From Alphaproteobacteria bacterium (lineage in GTDB: Bacteria > Pseudomonadota > Alphaproteobacteria > UBA828), in contig CAXXVO010000013.1 in assembly GCA_963422645.2 (NCBI GenBank), forward strand, positions 87,457 through 151,456: 64,000 bases of DNA. The letters are read 5' to 3'. Shown piece after piece: positions 3,131-58,385 of this stretch. The stretch's first letter is position 1, and each line of letters starts with the position of its first letter. Below the pieces are notes generated by a model. The model ran no database searches and had not been told where the DNA came from. It was given only the letters and a program-made list of their open reading frames with translations. A program made the translations under genes and the position numbers.

Positions 3131-3745
3131 ATGAGCAAGCGACAGCAGTCGAAGTACAAGATTTGCCGGCGCCTCGGCGTCAACCTCTGGGGCCGCCCCA
3201 AGAGCCCCACAAACAGGCGCGACTACGGGCCAGGGCAGCACGGCCAACGGCGGCGCAAGCCGTCCGATTTCGGCGTGCAGCTCTCTGCCAAGCAGCGCCT
3301 GCGCGGCTACTACGGCAACATCACCGAGAAGCAGTTCCGCCGCTACTACCACATCGCCGGCGACCGCAAGGGCGACACCGGCGAGAACCTGGTCGGACTG
3401 CTGGAGCGGCGCCTCGATGCCGTCGTCTACCGCATGAAGTTCGTGCCGACCGTGTTCGCGGCGCGCCAGTTCGTCAACCACGGCCACATCCTGGTCAATG
3501 GCCGCCGGGTTACGATCCCGAGCTACCTGGTGAAGGACGAGGACCGCATCACGGTGCGCGAGCGCTCGAAGCAACTGCCGCTGGTGCTGGAGGCGATCGA
3601 TTCGCCCGAGCGCGAGGTGCCGGACTACCTGGAGGTGGACCACGACCGGATGGAGGGGCGCTTCATCCGAGCGCCCAAGTTCGTCGATGTGCCCTATCCG
3701 GTGCAGATGGAGCCCAATCTCGTCATCGAGTACTACTCGCGCTAG
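3131..3745 (+). CDS. rpsD: 30S ribosomal protein S4
   Basis: [27 protein letters not shown]4 domain, C-terminal IEYYSR. Confidence 0.98.
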
Positions 3746-3839: not shown

Positions 3840-4427
3840 GTGATGGGCGCGTTGGCATTCGAGCATCATCTGCTGAAGGAAGCCGGTACCAGTCCCAATA
3901 ACGGGGCGCTGCCGCTCATCGTCTATCGGGGCGCCATCGGTGTCGGCGGCGACGAGCCGGAGGCGGCGGTCGAGCGGCATTTCGACTCCAATGGCTGGGG
4001 CGACGGCTTTCGCGGCGATACCTTTCCCTTTCACCACTACCATTCGATCGCCCACGAGGTTGTGGGCTGCGCGCGCGGCGCGGCGCGACTCCAGTTCGGC
4101 GGGCCGGATGGGCCGGTGGTCGACGTGCAGGCCGGAGACGCCGTGCTGATCCCGGCGGGTGTGGTCCACTGCCGGCTCGACGACAAGCCGGGCTACGTCA
4201 GCATCGGCGCCTACCCGCCGGGCCAGCAGCCGGACCTCTGCGTGCTCTCGAATCAGGACGCCGAGGTCTCCGACGCCAGGGACGATACCGAGGGGCTTGA
4301 GCTCAAGGTTGTGGGCGAAGCGGAGATGCCCGCGATCAGGGCCTCCATCGCCGCGGTCCCGCTGCCGAAGACCGACCCGCTGGCGGGCGGCAGCGGCCCG
4401 GTGGCCGATCTCTGGCTGGAGGGCTGA
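3840..4427 (+). CDS. Cupin-domain protein (YjlB-like)
   Basis: PNN..LP, FHHYHSIAHE, GDAVLIPAGVVH, IGAYPPGQ. Confidence 0.8.
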   Translation: MMGALAFEHHLLKEAGTSPNNGALPLIVYRGAIGVGGDEPEAAVERHFDSNGWGDGFRGDTFPFHHYHSIAHEVVGCARGAARLQFGGPDGPVVDVQAGDAVLIPAGVVHCRLDDKPGYVSIGAYPPGQQPDLCVLSNQDAEVSDARDDTEGLELKVVGEAEMPAIRASIAAVPLPKTDPLAGGSGPVADLWLEG

Positions 4428-12279: not shown

Positions 12280-12582
12280 TTTCGGCACCGCATCGTCCGT
12301 CTCGACGGAAAGCCGGCGGCTGGAACTTCCCTCCCCTCCCTGCACCGTGTTGACTTGCTTGGCCGAGCGTCCCGCCGTTTCCGTCAGGATTTTCTCGAGT
12401 CGCAACGCTGATGGGATGCTTCGAGAGGCCGCTCCCTGAACGGCTAACGCGGGCAGGGCTTGCTCGCAATGCCACCCAGCGCCGACCGACTCTCTCTGTA
12501 ACTACCCAGGTACCCCAATCCTGAGTTGAGGACGGTGATTATGGCGGCGGCCGCGGCCTGGTTCTGCCACCGCGATTGGTTC

Positions 12583-12641
12583 TTGACCTCATAGAGTTGC
12601 GGGACTATGGACCGCTCTCTCGCGTGACGGGAGCGGTCCAT
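12583..12641 (+). promoter_or_regulatory. Element-internal promoter plus hairpin covering the RBS and start of the MTase
   Basis: TTGACC-17bp-TATGGA; inverted repeat ATGGACCGCTC/GAGCGGTCCAT; equivalent layout in the diverged copy at 47296-47352. Confidence 0.65.
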
Positions 12642-13305
12642 GGGGTATTTCGGCTCGAAGGCGACAGCAGGTCTGTGCCAAGCGCTGATTGCGCTGATGC
12701 CGCCGCACTCCGTCTACATCGAAAGCCACCTTGGGGGCGGGGCGCTGATGAAGCGCAAGCCGCCGGCCGTGCGTTCGATCGGCATCGACCGCGATGCGCA
12801 GGCGCTCGAGGCCTTCGTCTGCGACTACCCGGTCGATCTGGTTCACGGCTGTGCCCATGACTTCCTGGCCTCGTTCCCGTTCCTGGGCCCGGAGCTGGTT
12901 TACAGCGATCCGCCCTATCTGCACGCGACCCGCCGCTCGGCGCAGCGCTACCGCTTCGAGTACGAGGAGGCCGGCCACGTCGCGCTTCTCGCGCTGCTCA
13001 AGGCTCTGCCCTGCCAGGTCATGATCTCGGGCCATCCGTCGGCGCTCTATGACGAGGTGCTGGCGGGATGGCGCCGGCTGGCGCTGCAGGTCACGACCCA
13101 GGGTCTGGTGCGAACCGAGGTCGTCTGGTTCAACTACGCCCCCGACCGGATGCATTGGGCCAGCCACGCAGGCCGGAACTTCACCGACCGCCAGCGCATC
13201 AAGCGCAAGGCAGCCAACTGGGGCCGGCGCTACCAGGCCTTGCCGCCGGGCGAACGCCTCGCCGTGCTCGCCGCCATGATGGCCGTCGAGGCCGAAGACA
13301 CGTGA
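12640..13305 (+). CDS. DNA adenine methyltransferase (Dam/D12-like), small orphan
   Basis: N-terminal YFGSK, SAM-binding motif I YIESHLGGGA, catalytic motif IV YSDPPY, VMISG, RTEVVW. Confidence 0.9.
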   Translation: MGYFGSKATAGLCQALIALMPPHSVYIESHLGGGALMKRKPPAVRSIGIDRDAQALEAFVCDYPVDLVHGCAHDFLASFPFLGPELVYSDPPYLHATRRSAQRYRFEYEEAGHVALLALLKALPCQVMISGHPSALYDEVLAGWRRLALQVTTQGLVRTEVVWFNYAPDRMHWASHAGRNFTDRQRIKRKAANWGRRYQALPPGERLAVLAAMMAVEAEDT

Positions 13306-14840
13306 CGGTGTCGCACTGGCACGAAGACCTCGCCGCCCGTAACGAGGCCTTCTGCTGCCTGAAGGAGCTTCTCGAGCCATCATCCCTCGCAACCACTGTC
13401 GTCGTTGCCGTCCGGGAATGGGGGCAGGGGCTGCTGCGATCAGCCACCGCGCTCGCCCGGGAAAATGCCGCACTCGAGCAGGAGAACGCGGCCCTGCGCG
13501 AGCGCATCGCCGAACTCGAGCGCAGCGCGGCCCTCAACAGCACCACAAGCAGCAAGCCCCCCGCCAGCGACGGGCTCAAGAAGAAAAGCGGAGCCCAGAG
13601 GCGCACCCAAAGCCAGCGCGGAAAGTCCGGCGGGCCCAGTGGCGGCCAGCCCGGCCACAAGGGAACCACCCTCGCGCGGAGCGACAGCCCGGACCGTGTC
13701 GTCGATCACCACCCCTCCACCTGTTCCGGCTGTGGCGTCGAGCTCTCGGACGCCGACCGGCAAGGCGCGCCCGCCTGTCGGCAGGTCTTCGACGTACCCG
13801 AGCCGCAGCCTCTCGAGGTCACCGAACACCGCGCCCATCGCTGCCTCTGCGGCGCATGCGGCACGCTGACACGAGCCGCCTTCCCGCCGGGCGTCACCGC
13901 CCCGGTCCAGTACGGCCCTCGCATCACCGCTTGGGTGAGTTACCTGCTGTACGCCCAGTTCGTGCCCGAGAAGCGTCTGGCCGAACTCATGAGCGACATC
14001 TTCGCGGTGTCCATCTCCACTGCCACGATCGCCGCCATGGGCCGGCGCACAGCGCAGCGCTTCGAGGGCTTCCTCGACCATGTCGCCGATCTGATCCGCA
14101 CGCAGGCGCCGGTCAAGCACCTCGACGAGACCGGCCTGCGTATCGCCGCCCGTACCCGCTGGCTCCATGTGCTGTGCACCCCGTTGCTCACCGTCCTGCG
14201 CATCGGCGAGGGACGCGGCGATGTCGAAAAGAACCTGAAAGGCATCCTCGTCCACGACGACTTCGCCCCCTACTTCACCATCAAGGGCGTCCGCCACGGC
14301 GCCTGCAACGCACATCACCTGCGCGAACTCCAGGCCCTGATCGACATCGAGAAGGAGGAATGGGCGGCGAGCATGCACCGCCTGCTTCAGCGCGCGCGCA
14401 GGGCCGCCCGCTTCGCCCGTGAGAAAGACCGTCAAGTCCCCGCCTCCCTGGTGGCCCGCATCTCAAGGGCATGGGACCGTATCCTCGAAGAAGCCATCGC
14501 CTTCCATGAGGCCCAACCGCCGCTCCAGATCGCAAAGCGAGGGCGAAAGAAACGCCGCATCGGCCACAACCTCGCGCGCCGCCTTCAAAAGCATAAGGAG
14601 GGCTGCCTGCGCTTCCTCACCGACATGCGCACGCCGTTCACGAATAACGAGGCGGAGCGTGACATCCGTATGAACAAAGTGCATGAGAAGATCTCAGGCG
14701 GCTTCCGCTCCCTGCAAGGCGCCTGCAACTTCGCCGGAATGCGCAGCGTCATCGTCACCGCTCGAAAGCAAGGCTGGAACATCCTGCAAATCCTGGCGCA
14801 CCCGGAACCGATGCAGCTGATCCCTATACTGCGCTCCTGA
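13302..14840 (+). CDS. IS66 family transposase (TnpC, single-ORF type)
   Basis: Coiled coil, NSTTSSKPPASD, GGQPGHKG, zinc finger CSGC..CGAC, HLDETG, CNAHHLREL, TNNEAER; GTG start overlaps the MTase TGA (GTGA). Confidence 0.93.
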   Translation: MTVSHWHEDLAARNEAFCCLKELLEPSSLATTVVVAVREWGQGLLRSATALARENAALEQENAALRERIAELERSAALNSTTSSKPPASDGLKKKSGAQRRTQSQRGKSGGPSGGQPGHKGTTLARSDSPDRVVDHHPSTCSGCGVELSDADRQGAPACRQVFDVPEPQPLEVTEHRAHRCLCGACGTLTRAAFPPGVTAPVQYGPRITAWVSYLLYAQFVPEKRLAELMSDIFAVSISTATIAAMGRRTAQRFEGFLDHVADLIRTQAPVKHLDETGLRIAARTRWLHVLCTPLLTVLRIGEGRGDVEKNLKGILVHDDFAPYFTIKGVRHGACNAHHLRELQALIDIEKEEWAASMHRLLQRARRAARFAREKDRQVPASLVARISRAWDRILEEAIAFHEAQPPLQIAKRGRKKRRIGHNLARRLQKHKEGCLRFLTDMRTPFTNNEAERDIRMNKVHEKISGGFRSLQGACNFAGMRSVIVTARKQGWNILQILAHPEPMQLIPILRS

Positions 14841-15135
14841 ACTTCTCCGGCTCATCCTGAGTATCGCTGTCCTCTCATCTTGTTCGCGACGCGGCGTTCA
14901 TCATCCTCTCGCGCTCAAGAGAGTAGGCACCCCCGCGGCGTGGGGGCGTTGACGCAAAAGGAACTGGCTTGTTCCATAAGAGAGAGGGGGTACCTGGGCA
15001 GTTACCTCTCTCTGCTTGTTGTTAAGCGTGGAAAAGTGACCCCCTATTGGGGGTGATCGGCGTCCAAAATTGACCCCCTTGGATTTGTGTCCATGAACAC
15101 ACCTCGTCGTTTGGACGGACGGGGTGGTGGGGGAG

Positions 15136-16650
15136 ATGCTGGTTGTGGAAACGATCGCGAAGATCCGTCGGGATCATCTGGTGAAGGGCGTTCCGATCAA
15201 GAAGCTCGCCCGGGATTTGAGGGTTTCCAAGAACACGATACGCAAGGTGGTGCGGGGCGATGCGACCTCGCACAGCTACGAGCGCAAGATCCAGCCGATG
15301 CCGAAGCTTGGGCTGTGGGTGGAGGAGCTTGAGCGCCAGCTGAAGGCCAACGAGAAGAAGGCACGCAAGGATCGGCTGTCTCTTCTGCGGATTCATGAAG
15401 ACCTTGTGTCGCTGGGCTACAAGGGCGGCTATGACGCGGTTCGCCGCTATGCCAGGGCCTGGCGGCGCCGGTGGCGGCTGTTGTCGCCGGCGCAGGCCTA
15501 TGTGCCGCTGATCTTCGATCCCGGCGAGGCCTACCAGTTCGACTGGAGCCACGAGTACGCGCGTCTGTCGGGCGCGACGACCAGGGTGAAGGCGGCGCAC
15601 ATGCGGCTGTGCCACAGCCGGATGTATCTGGTCCAGATCTTTCCCCGCGAGAGCCAGGAGATGGTCTTCGAGGCGCACGAGCGTGCCTTCCGCTTCTTCG
15701 GCGGGGTCTGCCGGCGGGGCATCTACGACAACATGAAGACGGCGGTGAGCACGATCTTCGTGGGCAAGAAGCGGGACTACAACCGCCGCTTCCAGGAGCT
15801 GTGCTCGCACCATCTGGTGGAGCCTGTGGCGTGCACGCCAGGGGCTGGCTGGGAGAAGGGGCAGGTCGAGAAGCAGGTGGGTGACCTTCGCGGCCGCCTG
15901 TTCGTGCCCATCCCGCGGGGCCGCTCCTACGCCGAGATCAACGAGTGGCTGATGGATCGGTGCATCGAGGACGCCAAGAAGCATCCGCATCCGACAATCC
16001 CGGGCAAGACGGTGTGGCAGGTGTTCGAGGAGGAGCAGCCCTTCCTGATGGCGTATCGCGGCCCCTTCGACGGCTTCCATGCCAGCGAGGTGTCGGTCTC
16101 GAAGACCTGTCTGGTGCGCTTCGACAACAACCAGTACAGCGTCGCGGCCCGCGCCGTCGGCCGGCCGGTGGACGTGCGGGCCTATGCCGATCGGATCGTC
16201 ATCCGCCAGGACGGCGAGACCGTTGCCGAGCACCCCCGCAGCTTCGGGCGCGGCCGGTTCGTCTACGATCCGTGGCATTACGTGCCGATCCTGACGCGGA
16301 AGCCCGGCGCGCTACGCAATGGCGCGCCCTTCAAGGACTGGCAGTTGCCCAACGCGCTCGGCCGCCTGCGAACCCGGCTCGCGGGCCACGACGACGGCGA
16401 CCGGCAGTTCGTCAAGGTGCTCGCGGCGGTGCTGGAGGACGGACTGGAGGCGGTTGAGGCGGCCTGTGCCGAGACGCTCGACTGCGGTGCCTGCAGCGCC
16501 GACGTGGTGCTCAACATCCTCGCCCGGCAGCGCCAGCCGGCACCGCCGGCAATCATCCCGACGCCCGAGGGCCTGCAGCTTCGCCACAAGCCGGTAGCCG
16601 ACTGTCAGCGCTACGACAGCCTGAGGGAGGCCGGTCATGGAGCGTCATGA
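15136..16650 (+). CDS. istA: IS21 transposase IstA
   Basis: N-terminal [29 protein letters not shown] motifs. Confidence 0.96.
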
Positions 16651-46557: not shown

Positions 46558-47447
46558 GTGAAAAGGTCCTGCAGGCACGCGAAGGCCTCGTCGTGGGCAG
46601 CGAGGTCCTCGTGCCAGCGCGACACTGTCACGAACCCTCGTCGGCCTCGACGGCCATGATCGCGGCCAGCACCGCCAGGCGTTCGCCCGCCGGCATGGCC
46701 TCGTAGCGCCGGCCCCAGTTGGCCGCCTTGCGCTTGATGCACTGGCGCTCGGTGAAGTTCCGGCCGGCGAAGCTCGCCCAGTGCACCCGGTCAGGCGCGA
46801 AGTTGAACCACACGACCTCGGTCCGCACCTGGGCCTGGGTCGTCACCTGCAGCGCCAGCCGGCGCCAGCCCGCCAGCAGCTCGTCATAGAGCGCAGACGG
46901 GTGGCCGAGACCATCACCTGGCAGGGCAGACCCTTGAGCAGTTCGAGGAGCGCGACGTGGTCGGCCTCCTCGTACTCGAAGCGGTAGCGCTGCGACGAAC
47001 GCCGGGTCGCGTGCAGATAGGGCGGATCGCTGTAGACCAGCTCCGGGCCCAGAAACGGGAACGAGGCCAGGAAGGAATGGGCGCAGCCGTGCACCAACTC
47101 CACCGGGTAGTCGCAGCCAAAGGCCTCAAGCGCCCGCTCGTCGCGGTCGATCCCGATCGAGCGCATGGCCGCAGGCTTGCGCTTCATCAGCGCCCCGCCC
47201 CCAAGATGGCTCTCGATATAGACAGAGTGCCGCGGCATCAGCGCAATCAGCGCCTGGCTCAGACCGGTCGTCGCCTTCGACCCGAAATACCCCACCGGCT
47301 GCTCCTCTCATGCGAGAGTGCAACCCATAGGCGAGAGAACCTATACAGTCAAGCGGGGATCAACGACGCGCCGGCGGCGAAACGGCACCGACGGCAAGCA
47401 ACATCAGCACGCACTCAGAACTGGCGGCGGGGTACCTGGGTAGTTAC
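46558..47447 (-). mobile_element. Second, diverged MTase-carrying IS66 element; left end only, truncated by IS21
   Basis: IRL GTAACTACCCAGGTACCCC at 47447-47429, MTase homologue, then first 74 bp of tnpC (VTVSRWHEDLAA) up to the IS21 end. Confidence 0.9.
46628..47295 (-). pseudogene. DNA adenine methyltransferase homologue with a 1-bp frameshift (real or sequencing error)
   Basis: 15 differences in the first 130 aa versus 12640-13305; TCGGCCAC instead of TCGGGCCAT near 46905; C-terminal part continues in ORF 46628-46846. Confidence 0.85.
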
Positions 47448-57947: not shown

Positions 57948-58385
57948 GTAACTGCCCAGGTACCCCCTCTCTCTTATGGAACAAGCCAGTTCCTTTTGCG
58001 TCAACGCCCCCACGCCGCGGGGGTGCCTACTCTCTTGAGCGCGAGAGGATGATGAACGCCGCGTCGCGAACAAGATGAGAGGACAGCGATACTCAGGATG
58101 AGCCGGAGAAGTTCAGGAGCGCAGTATAGGGATCAGCTGCATCGGTTCCGGGTGCGCCAGGATTTGCAGGATGTTCCAGCCTTGCTTTCGAGCGGTGACG
58201 ATGACGCTGCGCATTCCGGCGAAGTTGCAGGCGCCTTGCAGGGAGCGGAAGCCGCCTGAGATCTTCTCATGCACTTTGTTCATACGGATGTCACGCTCCG
58301 CCTCGTTATTCGTGAACGGCGTGCGCAGGTCGGTGAGGAAGCGCAGGCAGCCCTCCTTATGCTTTTGAAGGCGGCGCGCGAGGTT
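57948..58385 (-). mobile_element. Right-end remnant of the IS66 element (tnpC 3' end plus IRR)
   Basis: Reverse complement of 14568-15005 with one substitution seen; begins GTAACTGCCCAGGTACCCC; cut by the next element. Confidence 0.93.

Follow-up and report, generated by a model that had tools for sequence, protein, structure and literature searches.

A conserved gene cassette encoding a Dam-fold, Upf31-family protein ahead of the transposase genes of unrelated insertion sequences

Why does an insertion sequence (IS) carry a gene for a methyltransferase-like protein, and what might this gene do for the element? The question is raised by a 2508-bp element, here called F1, which lies in a 64,000-nt stretch of DNA from an alphaproteobacterium (assembly GCA_963422645.2, contig CAXXVO010000013.1, positions 87,457 to 151,456; hereafter the window). 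An IS is usually described as a transposase gene between two terminal repeats; accessory genes are uncommon, and little is understood about them. Ahead of its IS66-family transposase gene, F1 contains a gene for a 221-aa protein which is related to the plasmid protein Upf31 and is predicted to adopt the fold of the DNA adenine methyltransferase Dam. As set out below, this gene belongs to one conserved module that has been adopted at the identical position by at least three unrelated IS families.

Structure of the F1 element

The sequence, a repeat search and the list of open reading frames (ORFs) define positions 12498-15005 of the window as a complete IS66-family element of the tnpC-only type. 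The repeat search identified the left terminal inverted repeat GTAACTACCCAGGTACCCC (12498-12516, plus strand) and the right one (14987-15005, minus strand; reverse complement GTAACTGCCCAGGTACCCC). Each is 19 nt long, and the two are complementary at 18 of 19 positions (95%). The element is bordered by a perfect 8-bp target-site duplication, CTCTCTCT, which was read at 12490-12497 on the left and at 15006-15013 on the right. Two sense-strand genes are located between the repeats. The first (12640-13305, plus strand) encodes the 221-aa protein and was assigned from the ORF list, profiles and fold. The second (13302-14840, plus strand) starts with GTG and encodes TnpC, an IS66-family DDE transposase of 512 aa. 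The TGA stop codon of the first gene (13303-13305) overlaps the GTG start codon of tnpC at 13302, which gives a GTGA junction. According to the ORF list, no tnpA, tnpB or nuclease gene is present between the repeats; the remaining ORFs, which stood outside the family scans, are alternative frames of GC-rich coding DNA.

The product of tnpC matches the Pfam family PF03050 (E-value 5e-41, 141 bits against a cut-off of 23.1) and the NCBIfam model NF033517 for IS66 family transposases (3.7e-86, 290 bits against a cut-off of 180), much more strongly than chance would allow. The DUF6444 and zf-IS66 regions are also present. The terminal repeats of IS66 elements typically begin with GTAA, and the ISBst12 group consists of IS66 elements with tnpC only. 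F1 shares with this group the IS66 DDE transposase, the GTAA ends, the 8-bp duplication and the lack of tnpA and tnpB; it differs in an extra 0.67-kb gene with its own putative promoter and operator, coupled ahead of tnpC. F1 is thus a tnpC-only (ISBst12-like) relative of IS66 that gained one gene. An earlier note, made from this DNA alone, had described the repeats, the duplication, the two GTGA-joined ORFs, the IS66 affiliation and the absence of tnpA, tnpB and a nuclease gene, and all of this is borne out.

The source genome (5.9 Mb, 23 contigs, 67% G+C) contains 36 full-length copies of F1 with identities of 99.6-100%. An own perfect 8-bp duplication was found at 22 of these 36 copies. Both ORFs are open in all 25 copies of exactly 2508 bp, a count that leaves out the 11 copies of 2507, 2510 or 2511 bp. 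This shows that F1 is an intact, recently active IS and that the first gene is an integral part of it; the view of the earlier note that the gene moves with the element is therefore correct. Several of the other 14 copies have flanks exchanged pairwise between copies, which suggests recombination between IS copies. A sister element, F2 (2461 bp, 82% nucleotide identity to F1), also contains both genes and is present in 14 full copies, 11 of them with a perfect duplication. A third element, F3 (1888 bp), has ends of the same kind (GTAACTGCCCAGGT) and a TnpC about 60% identical to that of F1, and no trace of the first gene was found in it. At least 64 full-length matches to its TnpC were counted in the source genome. 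Together, F1, F2 and F3 amount to 114 full-length elements or full-length TnpC matches. Target-site duplications of 8 bp were also read at four elements in other genomes (L011, L051, L056 and L087).

Linkage of the gene to transposases

Homologues of the 221-aa protein with identities of 69-95% were collected at 80 loci in records of metagenome-assembled genomes. All 80 loci lie in IS contexts: 70 in IS66 elements, seven in IS701 elements and three in decayed elements. The linkage to IS66 tnpC on which the earlier note had made its view depend was thus found. At the 70 IS66 loci, the tnpC gene follows directly downstream on the same strand. Sixty-one of them form lineage A, with a TnpC at least 61% identical to that of the window; the GTGA junction and the N-terminus of TnpC are conserved in this lineage. 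The other nine form lineage B, with a TnpC 26-31% identical to that of the window, ends GTAACTACTCACCC and a length of about 2.26 kb. At the seven IS701 loci, the downstream gene encodes an IS701-family transposase (NF049999, 4.5e-92). The IS701 element is 2781 bp long, has repeats of its own (AGCTCGACTTTGTACATTT) and a 5-bp CTNAG duplication, and occurs in several copies per genome. Two of the decayed loci, L066 and L069, are remnants of lineage A in which the left end and the gene are followed by about 35 bp of tnpC, so that the gene is kept without a transposase. At the third, a fragment that appears by eye to be the N-terminus of a lineage-B-type TnpC follows the gene, with an IS91 gene further downstream.

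A further 80 loci came from metagenome contigs. Seven of them have too little downstream DNA; the other 73 are followed by an ORF of 100 aa or more, which is IS66-type at 57 loci, IS701 at one locus and without a blast hit at 15. Three of these 15 ORFs are IS1634-family transposases (NF033559, 8e-74), one belongs to a second IS701 type, IS66 fragments account for several, and five (L200, L218, L231, L233 and L251) are unclassified. The IS-linked gene was found in at least nine phyla, as judged from the titles of the records.

Comparison of the elements indicates how much they have in common. The IS701 element of Paracoccaceae shares with F1 only F1 positions 86-811, which comprise 57 bp of upstream sequence and the ORF. 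In the IS1634 element, the left end of lineage B and the gene lie within the IS1634 repeats, ahead of the IS1634 transposase gene. One IS1634 locus, L263, differs from L264 and L271 by an additional insertion of about 377 bp (1368-1745) between the gene and the transposase gene. Where the TnpC proteins of two elements share 26-31% identity, the gene shows 70%.

The constant place of the gene directly upstream of the transposase gene brings up the possibility that its product is a transposition cofactor which contacts the transposase and fills the slot of TnpA and TnpB in canonical IS66 elements. In line with this role, the two genes are translationally coupled, with GTGA at 71 of 159 junctions, and the gene is present in every one of the 61 lineage-A elements examined. 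However, proteins that are 67-85% identical serve three unrelated transposase families as well as TnpC proteins of about 30% identity, which makes a specific fit, and with it a transposase-specific cofactor, unlikely, and the decayed elements L066 and L069 have retained the gene after the loss of the transposase. We regard a cofactor role as very improbable.

Phylogeny and selection

A careful maximum-likelihood tree was calculated from 48 rows, 29 of them IS-linked, with 200 bootstrap trees; a quick tree of 70 rows agrees with it. The 29 IS-linked proteins make up one side of a branch with support of 100/99, which is present in 100% of the bootstrap trees, and their sister is a group of phage and plasmid proteins. 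The gene thus belongs to a single, IS-only clade of Upf31-family, Dam-fold proteins. Within the clade, four IS701-linked rows nest with lineage A (100/100), the IS1634 pair is placed inside lineage B, and the second IS701 type pairs with a lineage-B row (100/93). The nesting in the tree, the shared segments and the gap between the identities of the gene and of TnpC indicate that the cassette was passed between IS lineages; by these sequence comparisons, this happened at least four times. After each transfer, the cassette is found 5′ of the transposase gene and on the same strand.

Pairwise dN/dS ratios between lineage-A elements, calculated without L072, which contains a stop codon, were 0.11-0.30 for the gene and 0.17-0.48 for tnpC. 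These ratios, which the earlier note had suggested as a check, indicate purifying selection on the first gene, as strong as that on the transposase.

Taken together, these data bear on the explanation that the gene is carried along neutrally and does nothing for the element. IS with passenger genes do exist (10.1101/2021.05.26.445724 and PMC11891212, in the passages available of each), and the methylase-free F3 is no less abundant in the source genome. Against a plain passenger stand purifying selection equal to that on the transposase, the distribution of a single IS-only clade across at least nine phyla, the recurrence of position and orientation after at least four transfers between lineages, and the conservation of promoter, operator and hairpin described below. 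Strong constraint and constant placement make idle cargo unlikely, and we consider this explanation hardly credible.

The 221-aa protein

The product of the first gene contains a motif I, YIESHLGGGA, and a motif IV, DPPY. A profile of 42 relatives with identities of 40-100% shows no variation at G32, D90, P91 and P92, and at least 90% of the sequences have Y93. The protein is matched by the PHROG family phrog_56, ′DNA methyltransferase′ (2e-17), and by the PADLOC model MTase_II (5.6e-22). It has no Pfam match at E ≤ 0.01, PF02086 included, and reaches only 22.1 bits with TIGR00571 (Dam), below the cut-off of 114.85. A relative, L086, scores 19.2 against PF02086 and falls under the cut-off of 22. 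None of ten sequence clusters carries a name. The best PDB profile match is DpnM (2.8e-10), and E. coli Dam is also matched, in two pieces. Residues 4-61 align with DpnM 18-73, and residues 80-158 with DpnM 183-266; the target-recognition region of Dam (about 110 aa, DpnM 74-182) is reduced to about 18 residues. An AlphaFold (AF2) model with a pLDDT (predicted local distance difference test) of 90.6 consists of a Rossmann core followed by the helices 181-199 and 203-220, a two-helix C-terminal tail with a basic patch and W194. A Foldseek search placed E. coli Dam first (template modelling (TM) score 0.56), followed by DpnM and T4 Dam, with TM scores of about 0.5-0.56. The homodimer prediction gave 0.27 against a mark of 0.42 and carries no weight either way.

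The designation as a DNA adenine methyltransferase in the earlier note therefore holds in part. Motif I and motif IV on a Dam-like fold are present, as in the D12/Dam class, whereas the family cut-offs are missed and the target-recognition domain of Dam is absent. On the grounds of predicted fold and motifs, we refer to the protein as methyltransferase-like.

The closest characterized relative is Upf31 of the IncP-1beta plasmid pBP136, to which the protein shows 45% identity over 222 aa (BLASTP, E-value 8e-68). The two DPPY motifs are aligned, W194 lies opposite W198 of Upf31, and the C-terminal basic patch is common to both, so that homology extends over the full length and includes the C-terminal domain that marks the Upf31 family. 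According to the accessible parts of Elg et al. 2025 (PMC11997246), Upf31 is an N6-adenine methylase by prediction, and no methylation was detected either in digests of Dam sites or by SMRT (single-molecule real-time) sequencing of methylase-free E. coli. The same parts of the article report that Upf31 represses its own 68-bp promoter about 50-fold (xylE activity 4.76 units reduced to 0.09 units), and that repression requires the C-terminal domain (aa 173-225), which is thought to dimerise. The proposed operator is a conserved inverted repeat, CAGCATCG, in the Upf31 promoter (PMC11997246). There, Upf31 is treated as a solitary gene of the plasmid backbone with a presumed KorB interaction; the survey, in the text available, covered plasmids only, and the terms ′insertion sequence′ and ′IS66′ each occur zero times in that main text (PMC11997246).

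The family as a whole is large, with 3706 matches at E ≤ 0.001 in 90% clusters; 5660 representative clusters were obtained, 563 of them at E ≤ 1e-30. Relatives with 35-56% identity occur as solitary genes. Prophage-like viral contigs contain 336 of them, with three loci inspected; plasmids account for 150 records, of which 122 are conjugative, and the IncP-1 gene ′upf31.0′ is one of the plasmid members. A megablast search of the PLSDB plasmids with F1 gave no match, and the relatives found in PLSDB by tblastn are all below 60% identity, with IS linkage in none of the three records inspected.

From these properties, the protein could be an orphan N6-adenine DNA methyltransferase that methylates host and element DNA, for the control of transposition or for protection from restriction during transfer. 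In its favour, motif I and DPPY show little or no variation, dN/dS is about 0.2, fold and profiles match Dam, DpnM and T4 Dam as well as phrog_56 and MTase_II, and the solitary prophage and plasmid relatives are found in settings usual for anti-restriction methylases. This view is opposed by the replacement of the Dam target-recognition region by about 18 residues and by the missing methylation signal of the tested homologue Upf31 (PMC11997246, in the parts accessible). Moreover, no short site is common to the ends of different IS families; the pentamer CATAG, with 44 occurrences against 36.7 expected, shows neither avoidance nor enrichment in the window; and an IS gains little by protecting DNA that it does not itself transfer. 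An orphan methylase of this kind appears doubtful but is a serious rival to the function proposed below; the ideas of the earlier note of a restriction shield and of a rewritten host methylome likewise count as rivals. The repeats of several elements contain the tetramer GTAC, as GGTACC in both repeats of F1 and in the left repeat of F2 and as TGTACA in the IS701-type repeats. GTAC was considered as a common methylation site of IS ends and dropped, as the ends of lineage B (GTAACTACTCACCC) lack it.

Putative promoter, palindrome and hairpin of the cassette

The upstream sequences of the gene were aligned across all lineages. They contain TTGAC(A), followed by CATAG, about ten bases and CTATG. 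A -10-like TAT(G/A)NN begins at the TAT of CTATG, 17 nt after the -35-like hexamer. In F1, the -35-like hexamer TTGACC is located at 12583-12588 (plus strand), the operator-like palindrome CATAG-N10-CTATG at 12590-12609, and the -10-like TATGGA, which is overlapped by the right half of the palindrome, at 12606-12611 (plus strand). The sigma-70-like promoter and the operator are proposed from this conservation. A strong hairpin (12605-12643, plus strand; folding z-score -2.8) is predicted over the Shine-Dalgarno sequence (GGGAG) and start codon (ATG) of the first gene; in the equivalent hairpin of lineage B, compensatory changes keep five of eight pairs.

The order TTGAC..ATAG..CTAT is found in 80 of 99 distinct upstream sequences. 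ATAG-N8-12-CTAT is found in 82 of the 99, against an average of 0.47 in shuffled sequences, and the 17 exceptions mostly keep a symmetrical variant. Within the 64-kb window, the palindrome occurs only twice, each time at a cassette promoter. Among the half-sites, CAACATAG (36 sequences) and CAGCATAG (14 sequences) are the most frequent. The latter is one base off the IncP-1beta repeat CAGCATCG, which the half-site of the window, CA(N)CATAG, also resembles. Phage and plasmid sisters have the same or analogous palindromes, and the Upf31 branch has ATCGTCA-N4-TGACGAT at the same place. A palindrome, the candidate operator for autorepression of the Upf31 type, is present and conserved in the putative promoter of the cassette. 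Phage and plasmid sisters have two or three tandem copies of CATAG-N10-CTATG, in L113 (about 3390-3500, up to three copies) and L272 (about 3925-3990), an arrangement that would be expected of a multi-site operator.

On the sequences compared, the unit that travels in IS66, IS701 and IS1634 elements is a cassette in which a palindrome-bearing putative promoter and a 5′ hairpin precede the ORF.

Proposed function of the cassette

We slightly favour the view that the gene is a portable autorepressor module which sets the expression of the transposase, a reading that draws on all of the evidence. By homology with Upf31, the 221-aa protein would bind the palindrome overlapping its own -10 sequence and repress its promoter. 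The same promoter would drive the transposase gene, translationally coupled through the GTGA junction. The supply of transposase would then be under negative feedback, which the copies of the element would share in trans, and repression would be released when the element enters a repressor-free cell. Being self-contained, the module could function with any downstream transposase, which would explain its spread across unrelated IS families. The conserved S-adenosylmethionine (SAM)-binding and DPPY motifs suggest that the protein still methylates something; the target is possibly its own operator. The idea of the earlier note that the gene is a self-encoded epigenetic regulator is retained in so far as a regulatory role is the best reading. 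The adenine-methylation route proposed there is not supported, as the Dam recognition domain is absent and Upf31 represses while being methylation-negative in the accessible parts of its description (PMC11997246).

Several points weigh against autorepression. Operator binding and repression would be carried over from a relative with 45% identity and a different operator sequence. A protein that acts solely as a repressor would have no need of the DPPY motif and the glycine-rich loop; their invariance in 42 sequences down to 40% identity points to an enzymatic role that has been kept. The case against methylation by Upf31 includes a single negative SMRT test, made with an expression vector, as far as the available text of PMC11997246 goes. 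This test could have overlooked a rare or operator-only site, and methylation restricted to the operator might have escaped it if the construct lacked the native promoter. A simple sigma-70 consensus scan of 12400-15100 listed no site. Variant operators alter both half-sites together (CGTAG...CTACG in L261 and L267), which a base-paired hairpin would explain no less well than a binding site for a protein. With 36 and 14 copies of F1 and F2 in one genome, any self-limitation must be weak, and the methylase-free F3 does at least as well.

A bolder version is that the cassette is a self-contained epigenetic switch, in which a SAM-dependent repressor with a methyltransferase fold but without a recognition domain would bind and methylate only its own palindromic operator. 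An element that has reached a naive cell, or has newly been replicated, would produce transposase in a burst and then shut itself down; the switch would have been passed among IS66, IS701 and IS1634 elements across bacterial phyla. We think this version unlikely.

Comparison with known systems

The general kind of element, an IS with an accessory or passenger gene, is already known. In the passages available, the TnCentral preprint (10.1101/2021.05.26.445724) records IS that carry passenger genes (tIS) in the IS1595 and IS66 families, and a review (PMC11891212) cites IS220 of the IS1380 family for methyltransferase passengers. Judged from these citing passages, F1 is like a tIS such as IS220 in that a gene other than the transposase gene lies within the terminal repeats and moves with the IS, as in the 36 copies. 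F1 differs in that its gene forms one conserved clade in three IS families, is always located 5′ on the same strand and carries the presumed operon promoter. With respect to these tIS passages, the F1 gene looks like a part of the transposition module rather than cargo. The likeness to Upf31 comprises 45% full-length identity, DPPY, the helical tail with a tryptophan and a basic patch, and the promoter-overlapping palindrome; whereas Upf31, in the text available, is solitary on the plasmid backbone, the F1 gene lies inside an IS and heads the transposase operon.

Two classical modes of transposition control offer further comparisons. Host Dam controls the transposition of IS10/Tn10 and IS50/Tn5. 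A likeness to F1 may lie in the Dam-fold protein, the candidate site overlapping the -10 sequence of the transposase promoter and bursts on cell entry. In contrast to Dam, the F1 factor comes from the element itself; the recognition domain of Dam is missing from it, and its methylation activity is putative. Element-encoded repressors are also classical, as in InsA of IS1 and TnpR of Tn3, with which the F1 protein would share trans-acting, element-encoded repression of the transposase promoter. It differs from them in its class I methyltransferase fold, which is unrelated, and in the portability of the module between IS families.

A literature search, with ISfinder and REBASE outside its scope, found no paper on an IS66, IS701 or IS1634 element with an Upf31-type gene, nor any on an IS-specific clade of this module or its sharing by three families. 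The experiment on the plasmid homologue offers a testable function, autorepression. If true, this would be a new type of element-encoded transposition control in which a methyltransferase fold is recruited as a repressor, and the Upf31 family would gain a wider context that includes phages, conjugative plasmids and IS. It could also help to explain IS blooms in IS-rich genomes such as the source genome.

Other family members and sequences adjoining the elements

Among 400 other genomes, sampled by phylum, full-length family members were found in two, G127 (locus L092) and G337 (locus L093). At both loci (L092, 710-2286, minus strand; L093, 1426-2948, plus strand), a family member of about 42-46% identity overlaps, through ATGA, a conserved 257-aa ORF, which we take to encode an HhH-type DNA glycosylase. 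This ORF had no match in PADLOC, the only library scanned, and no transposase ORF was found in the 1.5-kb flanks. The promoter of the family gene contains the palindrome ATCGTCA-N4-TGACGAT.

The window contains two further fragments of the elements described. Positions 46558-47447 (minus strand) correspond to the first 891 bp of F2 (99.6% identical), with the palindrome at 47327-47344, and positions 57948-58385 (minus strand) to a 438-bp right-end fragment of F1 (99.8%). Directly to the right of F1 lies another mobile element (15014-16650) with a 508-aa ORF (15124-16650), which by eye looks like an IS21-type IstA transposase. The end of this IS21-like neighbour (…CTTTTCCACGCTTAACAACA) recurs beside several truncated copies of F1 elsewhere in the genome.

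Two F1 copies, C9:531722-534228 and C6:391794-394300, have the reciprocal flanks GAATACAT/GGAGAGTC and GGAGAGTC/GAATACAT, which suggests rearrangement via recombination. Several further copies have one shared flank in a similar pattern. F1 and F2 are often nested inside the ends of F3, for example at C8:39646-42106, C16:41032-43539 and C15:151698-154205. Of 137 intact F1 ends, 26 lie directly next to F3 sequence, as do nine of 62 intact F2 ends; most of these junctions are no more than about 55 bp from an F3 end. The 8-mer GATTTGTC was a target of both F1 and F2. The 33 perfect duplications average 39% G+C, compared with 67% for the genome; thus, insertion prefers AT-rich spots.

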